DNA from: Defluviitaleaceae bacterium
GTDB lineage: Bacteria; Bacillota; Clostridia; Lachnospirales; WRAX01
Direction of reading: 5' to 3'
DNA: 50,776 bases
Assembly (NCBI GenBank): GCA_009780415.1
Contig: WRAC01000017.1
Span: 1-50,776, forward strand
The translations under genes were made by a program, and so were the position numbers. Of this stretch, positions 1 to 14,527 are shown piece after piece. Numbering within the stretch: position 1 is the first letter of the stretch; each line of letters starts with the position of its first letter. The notes beneath the pieces are model-generated. The model was not told the origin of the DNA and made no database searches. It saw only the letters and a program-made list of their open reading frames with translations.

Positions 1-726
1 CTTCCCGCGTTTTTTTCCTTCCGCGTTTATTTCGTCTTGCTCCCGTACGGGCGGATTGCTGTCCGAAAGCGTTTTACCGTCCAGAAGCTGTATGATCCGG
101 CTGGCATAAGCGTTCGCCAGTTCCCCGTTGTGCGTAACCATAATAACCAGTCTTGTGGCTGAGATTTCCTTCAAAATTTCCATAACCTGGACGCTGGTGC
201 CGCTGTCCAATGAACCCGTCGGCTCGTCGGCAAGGATTATATCCGGGTTGTTCACAAGCGCCCGGGCGATTGCCACGCGCTGCATCTGCCCGCCGCTTAA
301 CTGGTTTGGCTTTTTCTTCATTTGGTCTTCAAGGCCCACGTCAATAAGCGCCTGTGCCGCGAGTTTGCGCCGTTCCGCGGGAGCTACGCCGCTAAGGGTA
401 AGCGCGATTTCGACGTTTTTCAGAACCGTCTGATGGGCTATAAGGTTATAATTTTGGAACACAAAGCCTATGGAACGATTGCGGTAGGCGTCCCAGTCCG
501 CGTCTTTATACTTTTTTGTGGACACGCCGTTAATAACCAAATCACCCTCGTCGTACCTATCCAGCCCACCGATAATGTTCAGTAGCGTCGTCTTGCCGCA
601 GCCCGAAGGCCCCAGCACGCAAACGAACTCGGCTTGCCGGAACCGGAAACTTACACCGCGCAGGGCATGAACCTCCATTGCCGCTCTATATGTCTTGTGT
701 ATTCCGTTTAGCTCTAATGTAATCAA
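1..726 (-). CDS. ABC transporter ATP-binding protein (partial; TTG start at 726, 3' end beyond window edge)
   Basis: Minus-strand translation reads [54 protein letters not shown]. There is a Walker [10 protein letters not shown] and a GGAGGG RBS upstream of the TTG. No stop codon occurs before position 1. The listed plus-strand ORFs 128-585 are antisense artefacts. Confidence 0.8.
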
Positions 727-4604: not shown

Positions 4605-4633
4605 TTGACAAATCATTTTCAATGCTGTATCAT
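4605..4633 (+). promoter_or_regulatory. Sigma-A promoter driving the T-box leader (TTGACA-17-TATCAT)
   Basis: TTGACA at 4605-4610, a 17-nt spacer, then TATCAT at 4628-4633. Confidence 0.6.
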
Positions 4634-4639
4634 ACTACA

Positions 4640-4927
4640 AAAGGTTATGACGGAGAAAAAGATATCTTAACTCAGTATGCCGGCGCGCCGGCAATTAGAG
4701 ATACCGCGGTTGGTGAAAGCGGGTGCTGACGGATATATAAATACACTCCTGAACCGATACCCTGAAAAATTCTGAGTAAGGGTGTACGGATGCCCGCCGT
4801 TATACGGGCAGGGATTGTTTGATCCCGTATGAGGGGCGGCTTGTTAAAAGCCGCAATCAGGGTGGTACCGCGAATATACTTTCGTCCCTGAGCAAGCTGT
4901 TTTTGCTCATGGCCGGAAGTTTTTTTA
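4640..4927 (+). promoter_or_regulatory. T-box riboswitch leader, probable tyrosine specifier (UAC)
   Basis: The conserved T-box sequence AGGGTGGTACCGCG matches the consensus exactly at 4859-4872. Stem I shows a GA/K-turn-like start (ATGACGGAG), an AGAGA box at about 4695, and a GGTGAAA distal-loop-like motif. A specifier loop AUAAAUACA sits immediately 5' of the helix-closing CUCC (4746-4749), which pairs with GGAG (4652-4655). This places UAC followed by A as the specifier. CAGGG of the T-box can pair with CCCUG of the terminator's 5' arm, giving an antiterminator. An intrinsic terminator lies at 4879-4927. Confidence 0.7.
4879..4927 (+). terminator. T-box attenuator terminator (imperfect ~13-bp stem plus U7)
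   Basis: CTTTCGTCCCTGAGC pairs with GCTCATGGCCGGAAG and is followed by TTTTTTT, directly upstream of the RBS AGGAGG. Confidence 0.55.
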
Positions 4928-4953
4928 TGCAATTAAACAAAGGAGGAAGTAAG

Positions 4954-6402
4954 ATGTCAAAAGTAACATTATTTTCCGGTGAAAGCATACCATTGGAAAT
5001 GCACAAGCCGCGCATGGTTCAAAAAGTAAATCTGCTGCCCGTTGAAGAGCGCCTTAACACCATACGCGAGGCCGGGTTCAACACCTTCCTGCTGAGAAGC
5101 CGCGACGTATATCTGGACATGCTTACGGACAGCGGCACAAACGCCATGAGTGAGAACCAATATGCCGCCATGATGCAGGCGGATGACAGCTACGCCGGAT
5201 CCGAGACCTTTTACCGTCTTGAAAAGGTGTTACAGGATATTTTCGGTATGAAGCATTTCCTTCCCGCGCATCAGGGCCGCGCGTGCGAGCATATAATCGC
5301 GCGGGTACTCGTTGCGCCCGGTTCAACCGCTTTGACAAATTTTCATTTTACAACCACCAAGGCGCATATATCCATCGCCGGCGGCGCCCTTGAGGAACTG
5401 GTCAGCGCGGAGGGGCTTGAAATCACCAGCAGTCTGCCGTTTAAGGGAGATATTGATTTAGACATGCTTACGGAAGCCATTAAGCGGCTGGGCAAGGATA
5501 AAATCAGCTTCGTACGGCTTGAAGCGGGGACAAACCTTATCGGCGGTCAGCCCATATCAATGGAAAACATCCGCGAGGTATCCCGCATATGCCGCGCGGA
5601 GGGCATTACGCTGGTTATGGACGCAAGCCTCCTTGCCGATAACCTCTATTTCATCAAAACCCGCGACCCGGAGTTCCGCGATACCGGCATCATCGAAATA
5701 ACCCGCGAAATAGGCCGCCTTTCCGATATAATCTACTTCAGCGGGCGCAAACTGGGCGCGGCGCGCGGCGGCGGCATACTTGTAAACGACGATAAGATGT
5801 TTACCGACATGCGCGAGCTTGTGCCGCTGTACGAGGGTTTCCTCACTTACGGCGGTATGTCGGCGCGCGAAATGGAGGCTATGGCCGTCGGGCTTCTTGA
5901 AACATTGGACATTGATGTAATAAGCCAGACGCCCCTTTTCGTCGAAGCGCTGTGCAATGAATTACAGAGCAAGGGCATCCCTGTTGTGACCCCTCCCGGC
6001 GGCCTGGGCTGCCATGTGGACGCAAAGCAATTCTGCCCCGATATCCCGCAAGCCCAGTACCCCGCGGCTGCATTGTCGGCGGCCTTCTACATCGCGGGCG
6101 GTTTCCGCGGCATGGAACGCGGTACCGCAAGCGAACAGCGGAACGACGACGGTACCGAGCATTTCGCGCAGATGGAACTTGTGCGCCTTGCAATGCCCAA
6201 ACGCGTATTTTCCCTCTCCCAGGTAAAATACACTGCCGACCGCGTGGCCTGGCTGCACAAAAACCGCGGACTCATCGGCGGCTTGGTCTTCGCCGAGGAA
6301 CCAAAGGTGCTGCGCTTCTTCTTCGGGCGTTTGGCTCCGATTGGAGACTGGCCTGAGAAGCTGATGAAGAAGTTTAGGGAGGATTTTGGGGAGAGCTTAT
6401 AA
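4954..6402 (+). CDS. Beta-eliminating lyase family protein, most similar to tyrosine phenol-lyase / tryptophanase
   Basis: Motifs that align almost residue-for-residue with TPL/TnaA: FNTFLLRSRDVYLDMLTDSGTNAMSENQYAAMM, HQGR, KGDIDL, and YEGFLTYGGMSAREMEAMAVGL. The RBS AGGAGG sits 8 nt before ATG 4954. The track's upstream extension to 4819 lies inside the T-box leader and is rejected. Confidence 0.85.
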   Translation: MSKVTLFSGESIPLEMHKPRMVQKVNLLPVEERLNTIREAGFNTFLLRSRDVYLDMLTDSGTNAMSENQYAAMMQADDSYAGSETFYRLEKVLQDIFGMKHFLPAHQGRACEHIIARVLVAPGSTALTNFHFTTTKAHISIAGGALEELVSAEGLEITSSLPFKGDIDLDMLTEAIKRLGKDKISFVRLEAGTNLIGGQPISMENIREVSRICRAEGITLVMDASLLADNLYFIKTRDPEFRDTGIIEITREIGRLSDIIYFSGRKLGAARGGGILVNDDKMFTDMRELVPLYEGFLTYGGMSAREMEAMAVGLLETLDIDVISQTPLFVEALCNELQSKGIPVVTPPGGLGCHVDAKQFCPDIPQAQYPAAALSAAFYIAGGFRGMERGTASEQRNDDGTEHFAQMELVRLAMPKRVFSLSQVKYTADRVAWLHKNRGLIGGLVFAEEPKVLRFFFGRLAPIGDWPEKLMKKFREDFGESL

Positions 6403-6408
6403 TCTGAG

Positions 6409-6442
6409 GGCGGCTACAGGCCGCCCTTGCTTTATTCTTCGA
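6409..6442 (+). terminator. Rho-independent terminator (AGGGCGGC-loop-GCCGCCCT plus T-tract)
   Basis: An 8-bp GC stem followed by TGCTTTATTCTT, sitting between the convergent gene ends. Confidence 0.6.
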
Positions 6443-6722: not shown

Positions 6723-8099
6723 TTATTTTATCACGGGAAGCGAATCAAAACCAGCCTGTAAATCCTCATCGGTCGGCGCATAGTCCGTTAAGCCTCCGCC
6801 GGTATAACTGCCATACGCCGCCATGTCGAAAAACCCTGTTCCCGAAAGGCCGAACACAATTGTTTTCTTTTCCCCGGTTTCCTTGCATTTAAGGGCTTCA
6901 TCCAGCGCGCATTTTATGGCGTGGGAGGATTCCGGCGCCGGTAGGGTGCCTTCGCAGCGGGCGAATTGTACGGCGGCTTCAAAAGCCTCGTTTTGTACGT
7001 AAGACCGCGCTTCGATATGTCCGTCGTGATAAAGCTTTGACAGTACGGGGCTCATGCCGTGATAGCGCAATCCCCCCGCGTGGCCCGGCGCGGGCATAAA
7101 CCCGCATCCCAGCGTATACATTTTTACAAGCGGGGTGGTTCTGCCGGTATCGCCGAAATCGTAGGCGTATTTGCCTCTGGTGAGGGTTGGGCAGGATGCC
7201 GGTTCAGCCGCGATAAAGCGCATGTTGTTTTTACCCGTTAATTTATCGGCTATAAAGGGCGACATCAGGCCGCCGAGGTTTGAGCCGCCGCCCGCGCAGC
7301 CGATGATGATATCCGGCTTGATGCCGTACATATCGCAAGCCGCCTTTGTTTCAAGGCCTATAACGCTTTGATGCATCAGCACATGGTCAAGGACGCTGCC
7401 AAGCACGTATTTGCAACCGGGTTTTTTTACGGCGGTTTCAATCGCCTCGGATATCGCGCAGCCCAAAGAGCCGCCGGTATCGGGGTTTTTAGCCAGAATC
7501 CCCCGTCCGGACTCCGTTGTGTCCGAAGGCGAAGGGGTTACCTTCGCGCCGTAGGTTTCCATAACCATTTTCCGATAAGGCTTTTGTTCCGCTGAGATTT
7601 TTACCATAAATACCTCAAGGTCAATGCCGTAATAGGCGCATGCCATGGACAAAGCCGTTCCCCACTGCCCCGCGCCTGTTTCGGTTGAAAGATGCGCCAA
7701 GCCCTGTTCCTTGGCGTAAAAAGCCTGGGCGGCGGCCGAATTCAATTTATGCGAACCGGAAGTGTTGTTACCCTCAAATTTGTAATAAATCGCAGCGGGC
7801 GTACCCAGCCTTTGCTCAAGACAGTAGGCGCGCACCAGAGGCGATGGGCGGTACATCCTGTAAAAACTCACCAATTCCTCTGGAATATCGATATATTCGT
7901 CTGTTGTGTTAAGCTCCTGATCAATCAGTTTATCGCAGAAAACGGGCGCAAGATCCTCTTTTGTACAGAGCTTAAGCGTTCCGGGGTGAAGCATTGGCTC
8001 GGGCAAGCATCCCATTTTCGCCATTACCGCGCGCAGATTATGCCAACAGCGCGGCGCGGCGCTCTCCGGCAGATAGATTTTATAAGGTACTCCGCTCAT
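6723..8099 (-). CDS. trpB: TrpB2-type tryptophan synthase beta subunit (stand-alone, PLP-dependent)
   Basis: Motifs YYKFEGNNTSGSHKLNSA and TETGAGQWGTALSMA, with a total of about 458 aa, are typical of the TrpB2 clade. Start ATG 8099 is preceded by GGAG. No trpA is adjacent. Confidence 0.85.
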   Translation of the reverse strand: MSGVPYKIYLPESAAPRCWHNLRAVMAKMGCLPEPMLHPGTLKLCTKEDLAPVFCDKLIDQELNTTDEYIDIPEELVSFYRMYRPSPLVRAYCLEQRLGTPAAIYYKFEGNNTSGSHKLNSAAAQAFYAKEQGLAHLSTETGAGQWGTALSMACAYYGIDLEVFMVKISAEQKPYRKMVMETYGAKVTPSPSDTTESGRGILAKNPDTGGSLGCAISEAIETAVKKPGCKYVLGSVLDHVLMHQSVIGLETKAACDMYGIKPDIIIGCAGGGSNLGGLMSPFIADKLTGKNNMRFIAAEPASCPTLTRGKYAYDFGDTGRTTPLVKMYTLGCGFMPAPGHAGGLRYHGMSPVLSKLYHDGHIEARSYVQNEAFEAAVQFARCEGTLPAPESSHAIKCALDEALKCKETGEKKTIVFGLSGTGFFDMAAYGSYTGGGLTDYAPTDEDLQAGFDSLPVIK

Positions 8100-8233
8100 A
8101 TTCTCTCCAATCCTTTCATTATAAAATAAAGCTAAAGCGAAAAAAGTTTTTTCAACCTTAACATAAGTATTGCGCTGTGTCAATAATTTGTGTTATTATG
8201 TTTTTTAACGTTATTTTTGGAAGGGTGAAATGT

Positions 8234-9574
8234 ATGAAACGACGACGAGTAATTATTATCGGGGCCGCGGGGCGGGATTTCCACAATTTCAACACTGTTT
8301 ACAGGGACAACTCCGCTTACGAAGTAGTTGCATTTACAGCAGCGCAGATACCGGATATAGCGGGCCGACGATACCCGGCGGAGCTGGCGGGCAGCCTGTA
8401 TCCGGCGGGCATACCGATACACGACCAAGCGGAACTGGAGGTCTTGATAAAAGACCTGTCTGCGGACGAATGTGTCTTTTCATACAGCGATATACATTAT
8501 AACGATGTAATGGCTCTTTCCGCGAAGATAAACGCCGCGGGGGCGGACTTTACGCTGCTGGGCCATAAATATACCATGTTGAAAAGCACAAAACCAGTTA
8601 TCGCTATAGGCGCGGTGCGCACGGGCTGCGGCAAGAGCCAAACCGCGCGGCGCGTTGCGGAGATACTTATCGCGAACGGCTTGAAGGTGATTGCCGTGCG
8701 CCATCCCATGCCTTACGGTGATTTGGCGGCGGCGAAGGTGCAGCGTTTCGCGGTTATTGAGGATCTTAAAAAACATAATTGCACCATCGAGGAGATGGAG
8801 GAATACGAGCCGCACATTACGCGCGGAAACGTTATCTACGCGGGTGTGGATTATGAGGCCATACTCCGCGCCGCCGAAAACGACCCGGACGGCTGCGACG
8901 TTATCCTGTGGGACGGCGGCAACAACGACTTCCCGTTCTATAAACCCGACATGATGATCACGGTTGTTGACCCGCACAGGCCCGGGCATGAGCTTAATTA
9001 TTATCCGGGCGAGGTTACGCTGAGATTGTCCGACGTTGTTGTCATTAATAAGATTGACAGCGCCGATTATGACGGCATTCAAGCCGTACGCGCCAATATC
9101 GCAGGCGTGAACCCGGACGCGGTTGTTATTGACGCCGCTTCGCCCTTAACCGTTGAAAACCCGGATATCATTAAGGGCAAACGGGTTTTGGTAATCGAGG
9201 ACGGCCCGACGCTTACCCACGGCGACATGAAGATCGGCGCGGGCGTTGTGGCGGCGAAGCGCTTCGGCGCGGCGGAACTTGCTGACCCAAGGCCGTATGC
9301 CGTGGGTAAGCTTGCCGGTACCTTCGTAAAGTATCCGGAAATCGGCAGGATACTGCCCGCTATGGGATACGGCGAAGAACAGCAATCCGACCTTTCCGCC
9401 ACCATTAACAAAGTTGATTGTGACGCCGTGATCATCGCCACGCCCATCGACCTCGCGCGCGTTATCAAGATTGACAAGCCCTGCACGCGGGTGGAATACA
9501 GCCTGCAGGAAATCGGGCGCCCCGATATGGAGGATGTCCTGACTGATTTCATTAAACGAGTTAAAGGGGAATAA
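8234..9574 (+). CDS. Uncharacterised P-loop NTPase-fold protein, cyclic 2,3-diphosphoglycerate synthetase-like / DUF1611-like
   Basis: 446 aa. The N-terminal part looks Rossmann-like (VIIIGAAGRDFHNF). A central P-loop reads AIGAVRTGCGKSQTA. RBS GGAAGGGTG. The family assignment is from memory of cPGS-like architecture and is tentative. Confidence 0.6.
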   Translation: MKRRRVIIIGAAGRDFHNFNTVYRDNSAYEVVAFTAAQIPDIAGRRYPAELAGSLYPAGIPIHDQAELEVLIKDLSADECVFSYSDIHYNDVMALSAKINAAGADFTLLGHKYTMLKSTKPVIAIGAVRTGCGKSQTARRVAEILIANGLKVIAVRHPMPYGDLAAAKVQRFAVIEDLKKHNCTIEEMEEYEPHITRGNVIYAGVDYEAILRAAENDPDGCDVILWDGGNNDFPFYKPDMMITVVDPHRPGHELNYYPGEVTLRLSDVVVINKIDSADYDGIQAVRANIAGVNPDAVVIDAASPLTVENPDIIKGKRVLVIEDGPTLTHGDMKIGAGVVAAKRFGAAELADPRPYAVGKLAGTFVKYPEIGRILPAMGYGEEQQSDLSATINKVDCDAVIIATPIDLARVIKIDKPCTRVEYSLQEIGRPDMEDVLTDFIKRVKGE

Positions 9575-9576
9575 AT

Positions 9577-10257
9577 ATGGGTTCAATTTCAAACGAAGTA
9601 AAAACGCAGGTACTGACGCAGGCGCTGCCTTACATCCAGCGTTATACCGGTAAGGTTATCGTCGTTAACTATGGCGGGAGCGCGGACGGTAAGCGCGAGA
9701 ACATCGATGCTTTGATGAGTGACCTTGTGCTGCTGGATACGATAAACGTTAAAGTTGTATTGGTTCACGAGGAATGCGGGGATGTAGCCGGAATGCTGGA
9801 GTTGTCCGCCGCTATTAACAAAGCCGGGGGCAAGGCCCTTGCTCTGTGCGGAGCGGATAAAGAAACGGTTGAAGGCGCGCTGGGACTGGGTTACATACCC
9901 GTTGTGGCGGCGATTGATTACGACAACGGCAAGGCCCTTAAAGGCAGCGCGGACAACACGGCGGCACGGATTGCCGGGGAGCTGAAAGCCGAAAACATGA
10001 TCGCCATTACCAATGTGCGCGGTGTCCTTAAAGACCCCTCGGACGACAGCACGCTGATTTCGGAGCTTTCTATCAGCGATGTGCCTTATTTGACCAAGCA
10101 GGGCGTTATCACCGGCGGCATGACTGAAAAAGTCGCTTCCTGTGTCGAAGCTATCCGCAGAGGCGTTAAAAAGGCGTTTATTATCGACGGAAACATAGCC
10201 CATGCCATACTTATTGAATTGTTCTCGGATGAGGGCATCGGCACAATGATTATTTAA
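9577..10257 (+). CDS. Amino-acid kinase family protein, degenerate acetylglutamate kinase (ArgB)-like
   Basis: The N-terminus LPYIQRYTGKVIVVNYGGSA and the C-terminal block ISGGMTEKV...AFIIDGNIAHAILIELFSDEGIGTMI align to ArgB. The HGGGPQ glycine loop is replaced by HEECGD. About 40 aa of the N-acetylglutamate lid region is absent. Total length is 226 aa. Confidence 0.7.
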   Translation: MGSISNEVKTQVLTQALPYIQRYTGKVIVVNYGGSADGKRENIDALMSDLVLLDTINVKVVLVHEECGDVAGMLELSAAINKAGGKALALCGADKETVEGALGLGYIPVVAAIDYDNGKALKGSADNTAARIAGELKAENMIAITNVRGVLKDPSDDSTLISELSISDVPYLTKQGVITGGMTEKVASCVEAIRRGVKKAFIIDGNIAHAILIELFSDEGIGTMII

Positions 10258-10271
10258 GGGAGGCGAAAACG

Positions 10272-11189
10272 ATGAGATTTTATCCAAAGCATTTTTTAAC
10301 CATGCAGGAACTGTCGGGCGAAGAGATTATTGAGCTGCTGAACATCGCCGACCAGTTAAAATACGAAAAAAAGAACGGCATACCCCATCCGCGCCTTGCG
10401 GGTAAGACTTTAGGCATGATATTCCAAAAATCCTCCACAAGGACGCGCATATCCTTTGAGGTGGGCATTTATCAGCTTGGCGGTACGGCTTTATTCCTCA
10501 GCCCAAATGATTTGCAAATCGGGCGCGGCGAGCCGCTGTCCGACACGGGCCGCTGTCTGGCGCGTTATCTGGACGGTATTATGATACGCACTTACGCCCA
10601 TGAGGATGTGGAACGCCTGACGGAATACGGTATACCCGTCGTAAACGGCCTTACGGATTACGCGCACCCCTGCCAGGTTCTGGCGGATTTAATGACCATA
10701 CGCGAGTATAAGAGCACGTTGAAGGGTCTGAAGCTGACGTTTATCGGCGACGGTAACAACATGGCAAATTCGTTGATTACGGGCTGTTTGAACGTTGGGA
10801 TGAGCATAAGCATAGCTTGCCCCAAGGGTTATGAGCCGCATGAAAAGGTGCTTGCCTATGCCGCCGGATTCGGCGATAAGTTTACGCTTACCGACAACAT
10901 TCAGAAGGCATGCGAGGGCTCCGATGTGCTGGTTACGGACGTTTGGGCGTCGATGGGCCATGAAGCCGAGGCCGCTAAACGGCTTGAGGCTTTCAAGGGT
11001 TATCAGATTAACGACAAAACCCTTTTCTACGCCAATGCAGAAGCCATGGTGCTGCACTGCCTACCCGCCCACAGGGGTGAGGAAATTACAGAGGAAGTGC
11101 TGGAACGCCACGCCGGTATGATTTTCGACGAGGCCGAAAACAGGCTTCACGCGCAAAAGGCTATTTTGATTAAACTTATGGAGAAGTAG
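10272..11189 (+). CDS. argF: Ornithine carbamoyltransferase
   Basis: Carbamoyl-phosphate motif STRTR, HPCQ, DVWASMG, HCLPAHRGEE, and a C-terminal FDEAENRLHAQKA. RBS AAGGGAGG. Confidence 0.88.
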   Translation: MRFYPKHFLTMQELSGEEIIELLNIADQLKYEKKNGIPHPRLAGKTLGMIFQKSSTRTRISFEVGIYQLGGTALFLSPNDLQIGRGEPLSDTGRCLARYLDGIMIRTYAHEDVERLTEYGIPVVNGLTDYAHPCQVLADLMTIREYKSTLKGLKLTFIGDGNNMANSLITGCLNVGMSISIACPKGYEPHEKVLAYAAGFGDKFTLTDNIQKACEGSDVLVTDVWASMGHEAEAAKRLEAFKGYQINDKTLFYANAEAMVLHCLPAHRGEEITEEVLERHAGMIFDEAENRLHAQKAILIKLMEK

Positions 11190-12782: not shown

Positions 12783-13315
12783 ACAATCGTTTTAACCCAA
12801 TACCTACGTGTTCGGATCATTTTCCCGCCAATATTGTTATCCACCGTATCCAAATATTCTCCGCCGTTTTTCTCTATAACGCGCCAGGAACCGATGTTGC
12901 TGTCATTGCACGTAACCAGTGCGGATTCGATTCCCAAGCTCGCCGCCTCACGCAGCAGAAGCGACAACTGCATTGTGCCGTATCCCTTGTTCCACGCCCC
13001 CGCGCGGATTGCGTAGCCTATATGCCCGCCGAAGCACATCAGAGCGGGCGTAAGCTCGTGGCGGATGCTGCCCTCGCCTAAAAATTCCTTTTTATCCTCG
13101 TCCACAAGCCATAGTGTCGTTGCCGGCACATAACCCTCTTTAAGGTTTCTGCCCAGTCTGTTATCTTCAAACCCGCGGAACAAATCAGGCGCCCATTTTT
13201 CATAATCATCCGGATCGTTAAGGCTGTACGACAAAAGCCCCAATTCCTTAAATTCCCGGCACGCTTCCAGATAACTCTGCAAGTAAACAGGTGATGGCGT
13301 AACAAGCTTTAACAT
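12779..13315 (-). CDS. GNAT family N-acetyltransferase
   Basis: Motifs GHIGYAIRAGAWNKGYGT and CNDSNIGSWRVIEKNGGEY match GNAT motifs A and B. An RBS GAGGAGG lies upstream. Confidence 0.75.
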   Translation of the reverse strand: MLKLVTPSPVYLQSYLEACREFKELGLLSYSLNDPDDYEKWAPDLFRGFEDNRLGRNLKEGYVPATTLWLVDEDKKEFLGEGSIRHELTPALMCFGGHIGYAIRAGAWNKGYGTMQLSLLLREAASLGIESALVTCNDSNIGSWRVIEKNGGEYLDTVDNNIGGKMIRTRRYWVKTIV

Positions 13316-13318
13316 ACC

Positions 13319-14527
13319 CTACCGCCGCCTCCTCGTCATTTCCATCAGCCCAAGGCGTGTCATGCCTTCAACAACAGTAATAGCGGGATCCTTTCTTAGT
13401 TCGTCCTTCAATTCCCGGGTAAGGGCCGCGATGTTTTCCGGCTCCTTCATCCCAATAAAATCAATGATAATAATGCCGCCCAGATTACGCAGCCGCAATT
13501 GTTTCGCTGTTTCACGCGCGGCCTCGATGTTTATTTTCAATGCCATATCCTCAAGGCTTTTCCGGCCCGAATACTGGCCTGAGTTTACGTCTATGACCAC
13601 ACATGCCTCTGTTCTATCTATTATAATACGGCCGCCGGAGGGCAGATATACCATCCTGTGCCTGGTAGTTTCATATGGTTTGCTTAGATTATATGTAGTA
13701 AATGCCTGGCCCTGAACCAGCGTTACCTTTATGCCCCTTGCCGCGTAAGCCTCCGTAAGCAGTGCGTGTTCGTCGGCGTTGTTAATAATTATTTCCCGTA
13801 CATTGGTACCGGCTCCGGCCATCAATTCCGCGGCAAGCATAACACACGCGCTGGCGTGGGGTTTATATGCCGGTACAGGGAGCCGGTCTTTGTCAAAGCC
13901 GTCTTTAACCGCTTCCGTTATCAGCGCCTCTGTTTCGGCAACCGCGCGTGCCAGTTGATTCAGCTCGGCATCAAGAAAGCTTGAGGCCGCATTCGCAGCG
14001 TCTGTCCTAATTATTATATTTTTATCAGGCAAAGCGATTTTTTCAAGTAGTTCCCCGGTTATCCTCAAAAGCCTTTCGCGCTCTGTTTCGGATGTAATCT
14101 TCTTTGATATACTTATCCTTCCAAGTTCAGTATCTATATTTTCTGGTTGTTGTATATGTTCTATAACAAAAAATCTACCGGGCCATGTCAGCTTTGTGGT
14201 TACGTATGCCCCCTTTTCGCGGCACGCGTCCCTTGTGACCTGTACCGCCACCGGATGCCCGGCTTTTACGGTTCCAACCGCCGCCGTATCCTTGTTGTCA
14301 TTAAGGTTCAGGAACGCGTTGCGTTCCTGCCCGATATCCACAAAAGCGAAGCCGTTTTTATTAACGGCTTCCACAATGCCGACATATATATTACCCGACG
14401 CGGACTCCTTACCCTGATTGGTATCCATAAATTCAATAGGTTCGCCGTTTTCCGCAAGCGCCGCCTTTGATCCGTTTTCATCTTTATCAATGATAATACG
14501 CCATTCAGCGCTAAGCTTAACCGGCAT
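13319..14527 (-). CDS. rng: Ribonuclease G/E family endoribonuclease (catalytic domain)
   Basis: Contains RLRNLGGIIIIDFIGM and an S1-like N-terminus. The ATG at 14527 is the preferred start. The track's TTG at 14569 has no RBS. Confidence 0.8.
   Translation of the reverse strand: MPVKLSAEWRIIIDKDENGSKAALAENGEPIEFMDTNQGKESASGNIYVGIVEAVNKNGFAFVDIGQERNAFLNLNDNKDTAAVGTVKAGHPVAVQVTRDACREKGAYVTTKLTWPGRFFVIEHIQQPENIDTELGRISISKKITSETERERLLRITGELLEKIALPDKNIIIRTDAANAASSFLDAELNQLARAVAETEALITEAVKDGFDKDRLPVPAYKPHASACVMLAAELMAGAGTNVREIIINNADEHALLTEAYAARGIKVTLVQGQAFTTYNLSKPYETTRHRMVYLPSGGRIIIDRTEACVVIDVNSGQYSGRKSLEDMALKINIEAARETAKQLRLRNLGGIIIIDFIGMKEPENIAALTRELKDELRKDPAITVVEGMTRLGLMEMTRRRR

Follow-up and report, generated by a model that had tools for sequence, protein, structure and literature searches.

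In the 50.8-kb contig WRAC01000017.1 of a Defluviitaleaceae bacterium (this whole stretch is called the window below, and coordinates refer to it unless a related locus, Lnnn, is named), a gene for a pyridoxal phosphate (PLP) enzyme of the tyrosine phenol-lyase (TPL)/tryptophanase (TnaA) family lies behind a tyrosine-specific T-box leader. Judging from its sequence, the unit is self-contained and monocistronic, consisting of a promoter, a Tyr T-box transcription attenuator and the enzyme gene (4954–6402, forward strand, 482 residues). To our knowledge, all characterized T-box targets (synthetases, biosynthetic enzymes and importers) make more of the cognate charged tRNA available, so the product of this gene should raise tyrosine. 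We consider it probable that the enzyme forms tyrosine by salvage of phenol and that it is induced by uncharged tRNA-Tyr. The arrangement recurs in 27 of 118 related loci, which excludes chance as its explanation, and the enzyme belongs to a separate clade of the family that retains the residues of a TPL-type pocket.

The leader is, in every sequence-level respect, a bona fide T-box. It matches the Rfam covariance model RF00230 over its full length (4638–4892, forward strand; model positions 1–219 of 219) and at 113.8 bits (E = 1.7e-24) lies well above the gathering score of 93; no other Rfam family was found in the window. A σ70-type promoter on the same strand (4605–4633), with TTGACA at 4605–4610, a 17-nt spacer and TATCAT at 4628–4633, agrees with the consensus at 11 of 12 positions and ends just 5′ of the Rfam match. 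The leader parts follow one another in the usual 5′ to 3′ order: Stem I with the GA/K-turn motif and specifier loop, Stem II, Stem IIA/B, Stem III and the antiterminator. Stem I carries an AGAGA bulge (4697–4701) and the distal loop GGUUGGUGAAAG (4708–4719). The specifier loop, when aligned to the covariance model, shows AUAAA-UAC-A-CUCC on its 3′ side, in which CUCC (4746–4749) pairs with GGAG (4652–4655) to form the closing helix of Stem I. The tyrosine codon UAC (4742–4744) and the purine A4745 stand directly 5′ of this CUCC and thus occupy the canonical specifier position.

The T-box sequence AGGGUGGUACCGCG (4859–4872) lies inside the antiterminator (4859–4889), in which the helices AGGG/CCCU and CGAA/UUCG flank a UGGUACC bulge. 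Through its UGGU (4863–4866), this bulge is suited to pairing with a tRNA that has A73 as its discriminator and so ends in ACCA-3′. Bacterial tRNA-Tyr carries A73; no tRNA-Tyr gene on which this could be checked was present in the window or in the seven loci scanned. An intrinsic terminator follows (4878–4926), made up of a hairpin (4878–4920) and a U7 run (4920–4926); folding of the segment 4855–4935 gave the hairpin a free energy of −23.7 kcal/mol (z = −2.33). Residues 4878–4889 are common to the 3′ strand of the antiterminator and the 5′ arm of the terminator, and the two structures are therefore mutually exclusive. All of these elements are on the forward strand. The leader would work as follows, where we infer the response to tRNA-Tyr from the structure. 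When tyrosine is plentiful, charged tRNA-Tyr would be unable to stabilize the antiterminator and transcription would stop at 4926, before the gene. When tyrosine is scarce, the GUA anticodon of uncharged tRNA-Tyr would pair with UAC at 4742–4744 and its free ACCA end with UGGU at 4863–4866, which would let the antiterminator form and transcription run on into the gene. Translation would then start from a ribosome-binding site AAGGAGGA (4940–4947) 5′ of the ATG at 4954. The start codon is at 4954 and not at 4955, and the deposited product uses a different one. A sequence-only reading of this DNA had proposed the T-box, a Tyr specifier with a purine beside the closing helix, a UGGU bulge fitting A73, and an antiterminator and terminator ahead of the gene; all four are borne out by the covariance model and the folding, and the near-consensus promoter accounts for the position, 4605, at which that reading had begun the unit.

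Related loci were collected from genomes (38, one genome per species) and metagenomes (80), with protein identities of 55–77%. The T-box motif GGUGGUACC(G/A)CG occurs within 450 nt upstream of the start in 27 of these 118 loci, in most of them about 100 nt away, and a looser motif pattern applied to the same loci found no additional leaders. Seventeen of the orthologous leaders score at or above the Rfam gathering score. An equivalent terminator hairpin, GUCCCUGAGCAAG...CUUGCUCAGGGAC followed by a U run, is present in orthologous leaders. GGUGGUACC is invariant in all aligned leaders, with the next position A instead of G in L046, and AAAUACACU is invariant across 15 aligned leaders. Of 66 pairs that RNAalifold predicts in 18 leaders, 34 show compensatory changes. 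The TACA columns, by contrast, do not vary in the 15 leaders, nor in 18 that include the divergent L076 and L067. The stems evolve and the specifier does not.

Leaving aside two leaders that are cut by contig ends, every one of the 26 readable leaders (the window included) has UAC in the specifier position, strongly diverged ones among them. Covariance-model alignments place UAC+A there in L076 (149 bits), L067 (131 bits), L043, L046 and L093, and the leader sequences of L076, L067 and L093 differ strongly from that of the window; L094 has UAC+G. We weighed the case that the specifier is misassigned and that another tRNA is sensed, as triplets for Ile (AUA), Thr (ACA/ACC) and Asn (AAU) overlap in AAAUACAC, A73 is not unique to tRNA-Tyr, and the leaders of L090 and L106 have UAC+C, which makes a reading of ACC+G conceivable there. 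This seems to us very improbable: not only does the alignment set UAC+A at the canonical position, but the loop context also varies from leader to leader (AAAUACA, GUUACA, AUUACA, AAUACG), with UAC alone shared at a constant distance from the helix.

Among the genome loci, the T-box occurs in 13 of 19 from Firmicutes and in one Anaerolineaceae genome. The Firmicutes loci that lack it are L013, L020, L021, L022, L023 and L036, where Rfam shows no other leader. The motif is found in none of the Bacteroidales and Opitutales loci, and an Rfam scan of the Treponema, Synergistaceae and Deferribacteraceae loci detected no T-box. The unit seems to travel as a whole. In the Anaerolineaceae genome (a 2.3-Mb contig) and a Christensenellales metagenome-assembled genome (MAG), which form the pair L002 (5682–7449) and L038 (5684–7449), the leaders are 89% and the coding sequences 88% identical at the nucleotide level, whereas the 1-kb upstream flanks are 44% identical, the level of every other flank comparison. 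As leader and coding-sequence identities track each other and the flanks are at background, the unit moves as a cassette. Termite-gut MAGs of Treponema, Synergistaceae and Deferribacteraceae (L001, L007 and L015) encode 72–75% identical proteins without a T-box; an inter-phylum transfer of the gene within one habitat, the termite gut, is suggested. The habitats of the carriers, namely termite and vertebrate guts, anaerobic digesters, fens and permafrost, are anoxic and often rich in phenolics.

The protein matches PF01212 (Beta_elim_lyase; E = 2.4e-52) and the broad NCBI subfamily model NF009709 ('tryptophanase'; 571 bits). It does not reach the cutoffs of the equivalog models for TPL (TIGR02618; 442.6 bits, cutoff 720.7), TnaA (TIGR02617; 327.8 bits, cutoff 825.8) or tryptophanase (NF053783; 362 bits, cutoff 750). 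In the PDB, TPLs match best (E = 3e-118 to 1e-115), followed by tryptophanases (E = 1.5e-90). Positions that separate TPL from tryptophanase have been listed (PMC5805759), and in the numbering of Citrobacter freundii TPL the window protein has the TPL-type residue at Thr124 (T133), Met379 (M387), Arg381 (R389) and Phe448/449 (F455/F456). In place of the diagnostic Met288 the window protein has Phe, a residue shared here by two of three canonical TPL-type representatives. The general acid Tyr71 (Y80) and the PLP lysine Lys257 (K266) are present, as are the residues that TPL and TnaA have in common, Arg100 (R109), Asn185 (N194), Asp214 (D223) and the catalytic Arg404 (R411). Compared with Escherichia coli TnaA (EC 4.1.99.1), a member of the same family, the clade has Thr for Asp137, Met for Val394, Arg for Ile396 and Phe for His463. 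The diagnostic residues thus predict a pocket that suits a para-hydroxyphenyl group and not indole. Source databases annotate the relatives as tryptophanase or TPL, and the name 'tryptophanase' is very probably a misannotation of these proteins.

The enzyme resembles C. freundii TPL (EC 4.1.99.2; PDB entries 2EZ1 and 2TPL; TIGR02618) in fold, family, catalytic residues and TPL-diagnostic residues, and as judged from these it is TPL-like in its pocket and catalytic center but is not a canonical TPL. It is only ∼41% identical to TPL and ∼25 residues longer at the C-terminus, and its scores below the equivalog cutoff, together with changes at residues common to TPL and TnaA, place it outside the TPL equivalog. 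The assignment to the TPL/tryptophanase family in the sequence-only reading therefore stands and canonical TPL status does not; the positions Thr124, Arg381 and Phe448, which that reading had singled out, turn out to be TPL-type and not tryptophanase-type.

The relatives form a distinct clade. In a neighbor-joining tree from an alignment of 112 clade members, four TPL-type and 25 TnaA-type proteins, the clade is monophyletic and sister to TPL; its members are on average 62% identical to one another, 41% to the TPL-type and 35% to the TnaA-type proteins. When 1.84 billion representatives at 50% identity were searched, a single full-length cluster was returned for the window protein (P0121, 60% identity); the next single-domain relative, P0129, is at 46% and canonical TPL-type proteins are at 41–44%. 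The genomic contexts of P0121 and P0129 were uninformative. The same search also returned proteins of ∼850–930 residues (P0122–P0128 and P0132–P0136) with two Beta_elim_lyase domains in tandem, which the query matched twice at 32–38% identity. At four positions the clade departs from a residue on which canonical TPL and TnaA proteins largely or wholly agree: E69D (window D78), K256R (R265) and H343L (L351), each in 112 of 112 members, and R217L (L226) in 111 of 112. Every member tabulated also has N262R (R271) and D258L/V. We take Glu69 and Asn262 to be ligands of the activating monovalent cation (K+) in TPL, and Arg217 presumably contacts O3′ of PLP. E69D together with N262R might create an Asp–Arg salt bridge in place of K+, and the surroundings of the cofactor would then differ from those in TPL. 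Neither the PDB nor the literature searched yielded a characterized member of the clade. The clade would keep the C–C lyase machinery and the para-hydroxyphenyl pocket on a remodeled PLP and cation environment, and it appears to have been widely transferred.

The simplest route to tyrosine for such an enzyme would be the reverse or β-replacement chemistry of the family, in which phenol adds to the PLP-bound aminoacrylate. The aminoacrylate could come from serine or cysteine by β-replacement, which would be strongly favorable thermodynamically, or from pyruvate and NH4+ by the reverse TPL reaction. TPL has long been known to carry out β-replacement on serine with phenol. A nominally catabolic enzyme also serves as a tyrosine source in the Bacillus cereus group, where a Tyr T-box precedes phenylalanine-4-hydroxylase. 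Inside living E. coli, TPL makes tyrosine derivatives from phenols (PMC13174591). The biosynthetic direction, already favored by the sequence-only reading, is strengthened by the Tyr T-box in 27 further loci, by the separate clade and by a neighboring Trp-T-box trpBA unit in L067 (see below); we infer the reaction direction, the co-substrate and the source of the phenol. Gut phenol, which that reading had named as the source, is too narrow given that carriers also come from digesters, fens and permafrost besides termite and vertebrate guts.

Several observations weigh against tyrosine formation from phenol. The pyruvate and ammonium route favors breakdown, and synthesis normally needs millimolar phenol (PMC13174591). 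The protein has kept every residue that cleavage of tyrosine requires, and degradation of tyrosine would be just as possible. The T-box is absent in six of the 19 Firmicutes genome loci and in every locus assigned outside Firmicutes and Chloroflexi, and the specifiers of L090 and L106 lack the purine. Finally, genes for phenol production, phenol transport or aromatic biosynthesis show no consistent linkage to the orthologues, the neighborhood of which is highly variable.

An alternative is an ordinary catabolic TPL with a T-box that is leaky, vestigial or follows another logic, for example the harvest of pyruvate and ammonia in general starvation. The characterized members of the family are catabolic, the annotations say tryptophanase or TPL, and many orthologues have no T-box. 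We nevertheless regard a catabolic role as distinctly unlikely, as destroying tyrosine exactly when tRNA-Tyr is uncharged would be self-defeating, and an intact terminator and antiterminator with an invariant specifier across 26 leaders indicate purifying selection on the sensing of tRNA-Tyr. The enzyme also belongs to a separate clade and not to canonical TPL, and no T-box was found 5′ of canonical TPL-type representatives in three lineages, a small sample. Enterobacterial TPL is induced by tyrosine through TyrR, in contrast to the control by tyrosine starvation proposed here.

All-against-all clustering of the neighbors in 119 loci gave no conserved operon partner, and the gene is essentially stand-alone. 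This also holds for its surroundings in Rikenella microfusus and Opitutaceae TAV4, two isolates that carry the clade. TrpB-type genes are near the orthologue in three loci. In the window, a stand-alone TrpB2-type enzyme (6723–8183, reverse strand; NF009057, 654 bits, cutoff 366) is encoded convergently with the T-box gene; we treat it as context. In the Treponema locus L001, a TrpB2 gene (13034–13446) lies 5.6 kb from the orthologue. In L067 (2424–4728), the Tyr-T-box unit is directly followed by a second T-box that controls a canonical trpB (633 bits) and trpA. This second leader has the specifier UGG+A (Trp) and a UGGC bulge; its score of 79.7 bits is below the gathering score (E = 1e-17). 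The juxtaposition suggests a parallel salvage of rings into Trp and Tyr, each with its own amino-acid-specific T-box.

One Bacteroidales lineage from fens and permafrost has the orthologue between hydE and a TM1266-like regulator with hydG, in six or seven loci (L029, 4548–9264; L028, L030, L034, L035 and L037; L117 partly). HydE (349 bits) and HydG (488 bits) both score above their cutoffs. HydG is a tyrosine-consuming radical-SAM enzyme, an [FeFe]-hydrogenase maturase. A general link of the gene to [FeFe]-hydrogenase maturation was considered and rejected, as hydE/hydG neighbors are confined to this lineage. The linkage bears on the possibility that the chemistry is unchanged but the physiological substrate or product is another: the enzyme would couple a substituted phenol (catechol or some other phenolic from lignin or peat), or use a special donor, to give a tyrosine-like compound, or it would supply tyrosine to the radical-SAM tyrosine lyases HydG or ThiH and not to translation. 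The consumption of tyrosine by HydG and the clade-specific changes in the active site would suit such a role. We think it rather unlikely, since the hyd linkage is seen in one lineage only, Thr124, Arg381 and Phe448 speak for a 4-hydroxyphenyl group without substituents, and a T-box that reads the charging of tRNA-Tyr requires a product that feeds tyrosyl-tRNA synthetase.

A DUF554 membrane protein, which may be a transporter, adjoins the orthologue in seven of 119 loci (L047, 1917–2741; L003, 7485–8216; L075, 8601–9299; L073, L079, L096 and L119). In L047 the start of the DUF554 gene overlaps the stop codon of the T-box-controlled gene, which puts it in the Tyr T-box regulon there. As a possible exporter that is sometimes cotranscribed, it could point to detoxification of tyrosine analogues: a para-hydroxyphenyl amino acid such as L-3,4-dihydroxyphenylalanine (L-DOPA), halogenated or nitrated tyrosine, or azatyrosine would block tyrosyl-tRNA synthetase, uncharged tRNA-Tyr would accumulate and the T-box would induce an analogue-destroying lyase. 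The retained lyase residues and TPL-type pocket fit this idea, a modified substrate might account for the changes near PLP, and the termite-gut and fen carriers live where plant phenolics abound. However, no pocket residue that reads the 4′-OH is changed, we know of no T-box on an enzyme that degrades an antimetabolite, and the adjacency to the Trp-T-box trpBA unit in L067 fits supply better. Analogue detoxification is thus unlikely in our view, and we retain the formation of tyrosine from phenol as the favored function.

A more specific form of this function, plausible but tentative, is that the clade constitutes a natural 'tyrosine synthase', a dedicated mobile branch of the TPL family that builds tyrosine from phenol and is controlled by tRNA-Tyr in Firmicutes and Chloroflexi. 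Its phenol could be environmental, from phenolic-rich anoxic habitats, or conceivably internal, from chorismate via 4-hydroxybenzoate. E69D with N262R, R217L, K256R and H343L would then mark a cation-independent active site tuned for synthesis, and the enzyme would do for tyrosine what indole salvage by TrpB2 does for tryptophan. The proposed likeness to the indole-salvage tryptophan synthases TrpB/TrpB2 and to TyrS, the engineered TrpB-derived 'tyrosine synthase', is that of a last-step PLP enzyme that joins an aromatic ring, indole or phenol, to aminoacrylate and is induced by starvation for its product. The folds differ (PF00291 for TrpB/TrpB2, PF01212 here), and TyrS is a laboratory product.

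With respect to other RF00230 leaders, such as that of Bacillus subtilis tyrS, the window leader shares the full architecture, UAC followed by a purine, the UGGN bulge and the competing antiterminator and terminator. It differs in its target, which is a member of the β-eliminating lyase family and not a synthetase, classical biosynthesis gene or transporter. None of the papers in the literature searched links a T-box to TPL or tryptophanase, although a 2008 comparative T-box survey may mention it, and none links TPL to HydG, termites, or tyrosine biosynthesis or supply in anaerobes. The T-box target class and the TPL-family clade appear to be new, and the physiological role of the enzyme is probably inverted. 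T-box regulons are reliable guides to function, since their characterized targets all raise charged tRNA, and a conserved Tyr T-box on a 'lyase' would reassign a widespread clade, automatically named tryptophanase, to tyrosine acquisition. If so, it would provide a one-step salvage of tyrosine from phenol, a natural counterpart to TrpB2 indole salvage. Predictions of tyrosine auxotrophy and of phenol cross-feeding in gut, termite, peat and digester communities would change, and enzyme engineers, who at present evolve TPL and TrpB to obtain tyrosine analogues, would have in the clade a scaffold that is oriented toward synthesis by nature.

In the window, the enzyme gene is directly followed after its stop codon by a terminator-like hairpin on the same strand (6405–6429; 11-bp stem with seven G–C pairs and a T-rich tail). 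No aromatic-biosynthesis genes were found in the rest of the window, which is ordinary spore-former chromosome with SpoIIE, GerA/B/C, MutS2, sugar transporters and UxaC. In L090, the 5′ end of a 16S rRNA gene (1–302, reverse strand) lies at the contig end ∼760 nt from the T-box/TPL-like unit and could be used for the taxonomy of that divergent UAC+C lineage. Farther along the window, a 465-residue open reading frame (8177–9574, forward strand) is without a convincing family match, and a 226-residue frame (9577–10254, forward strand) resembles acetylglutamate kinase (AA_kinase) over the C-terminal half of that enzyme only. The pair adjoins an ornithine carbamoyltransferase gene (10272–11189) and may represent a disrupted or unusual argB beside it.

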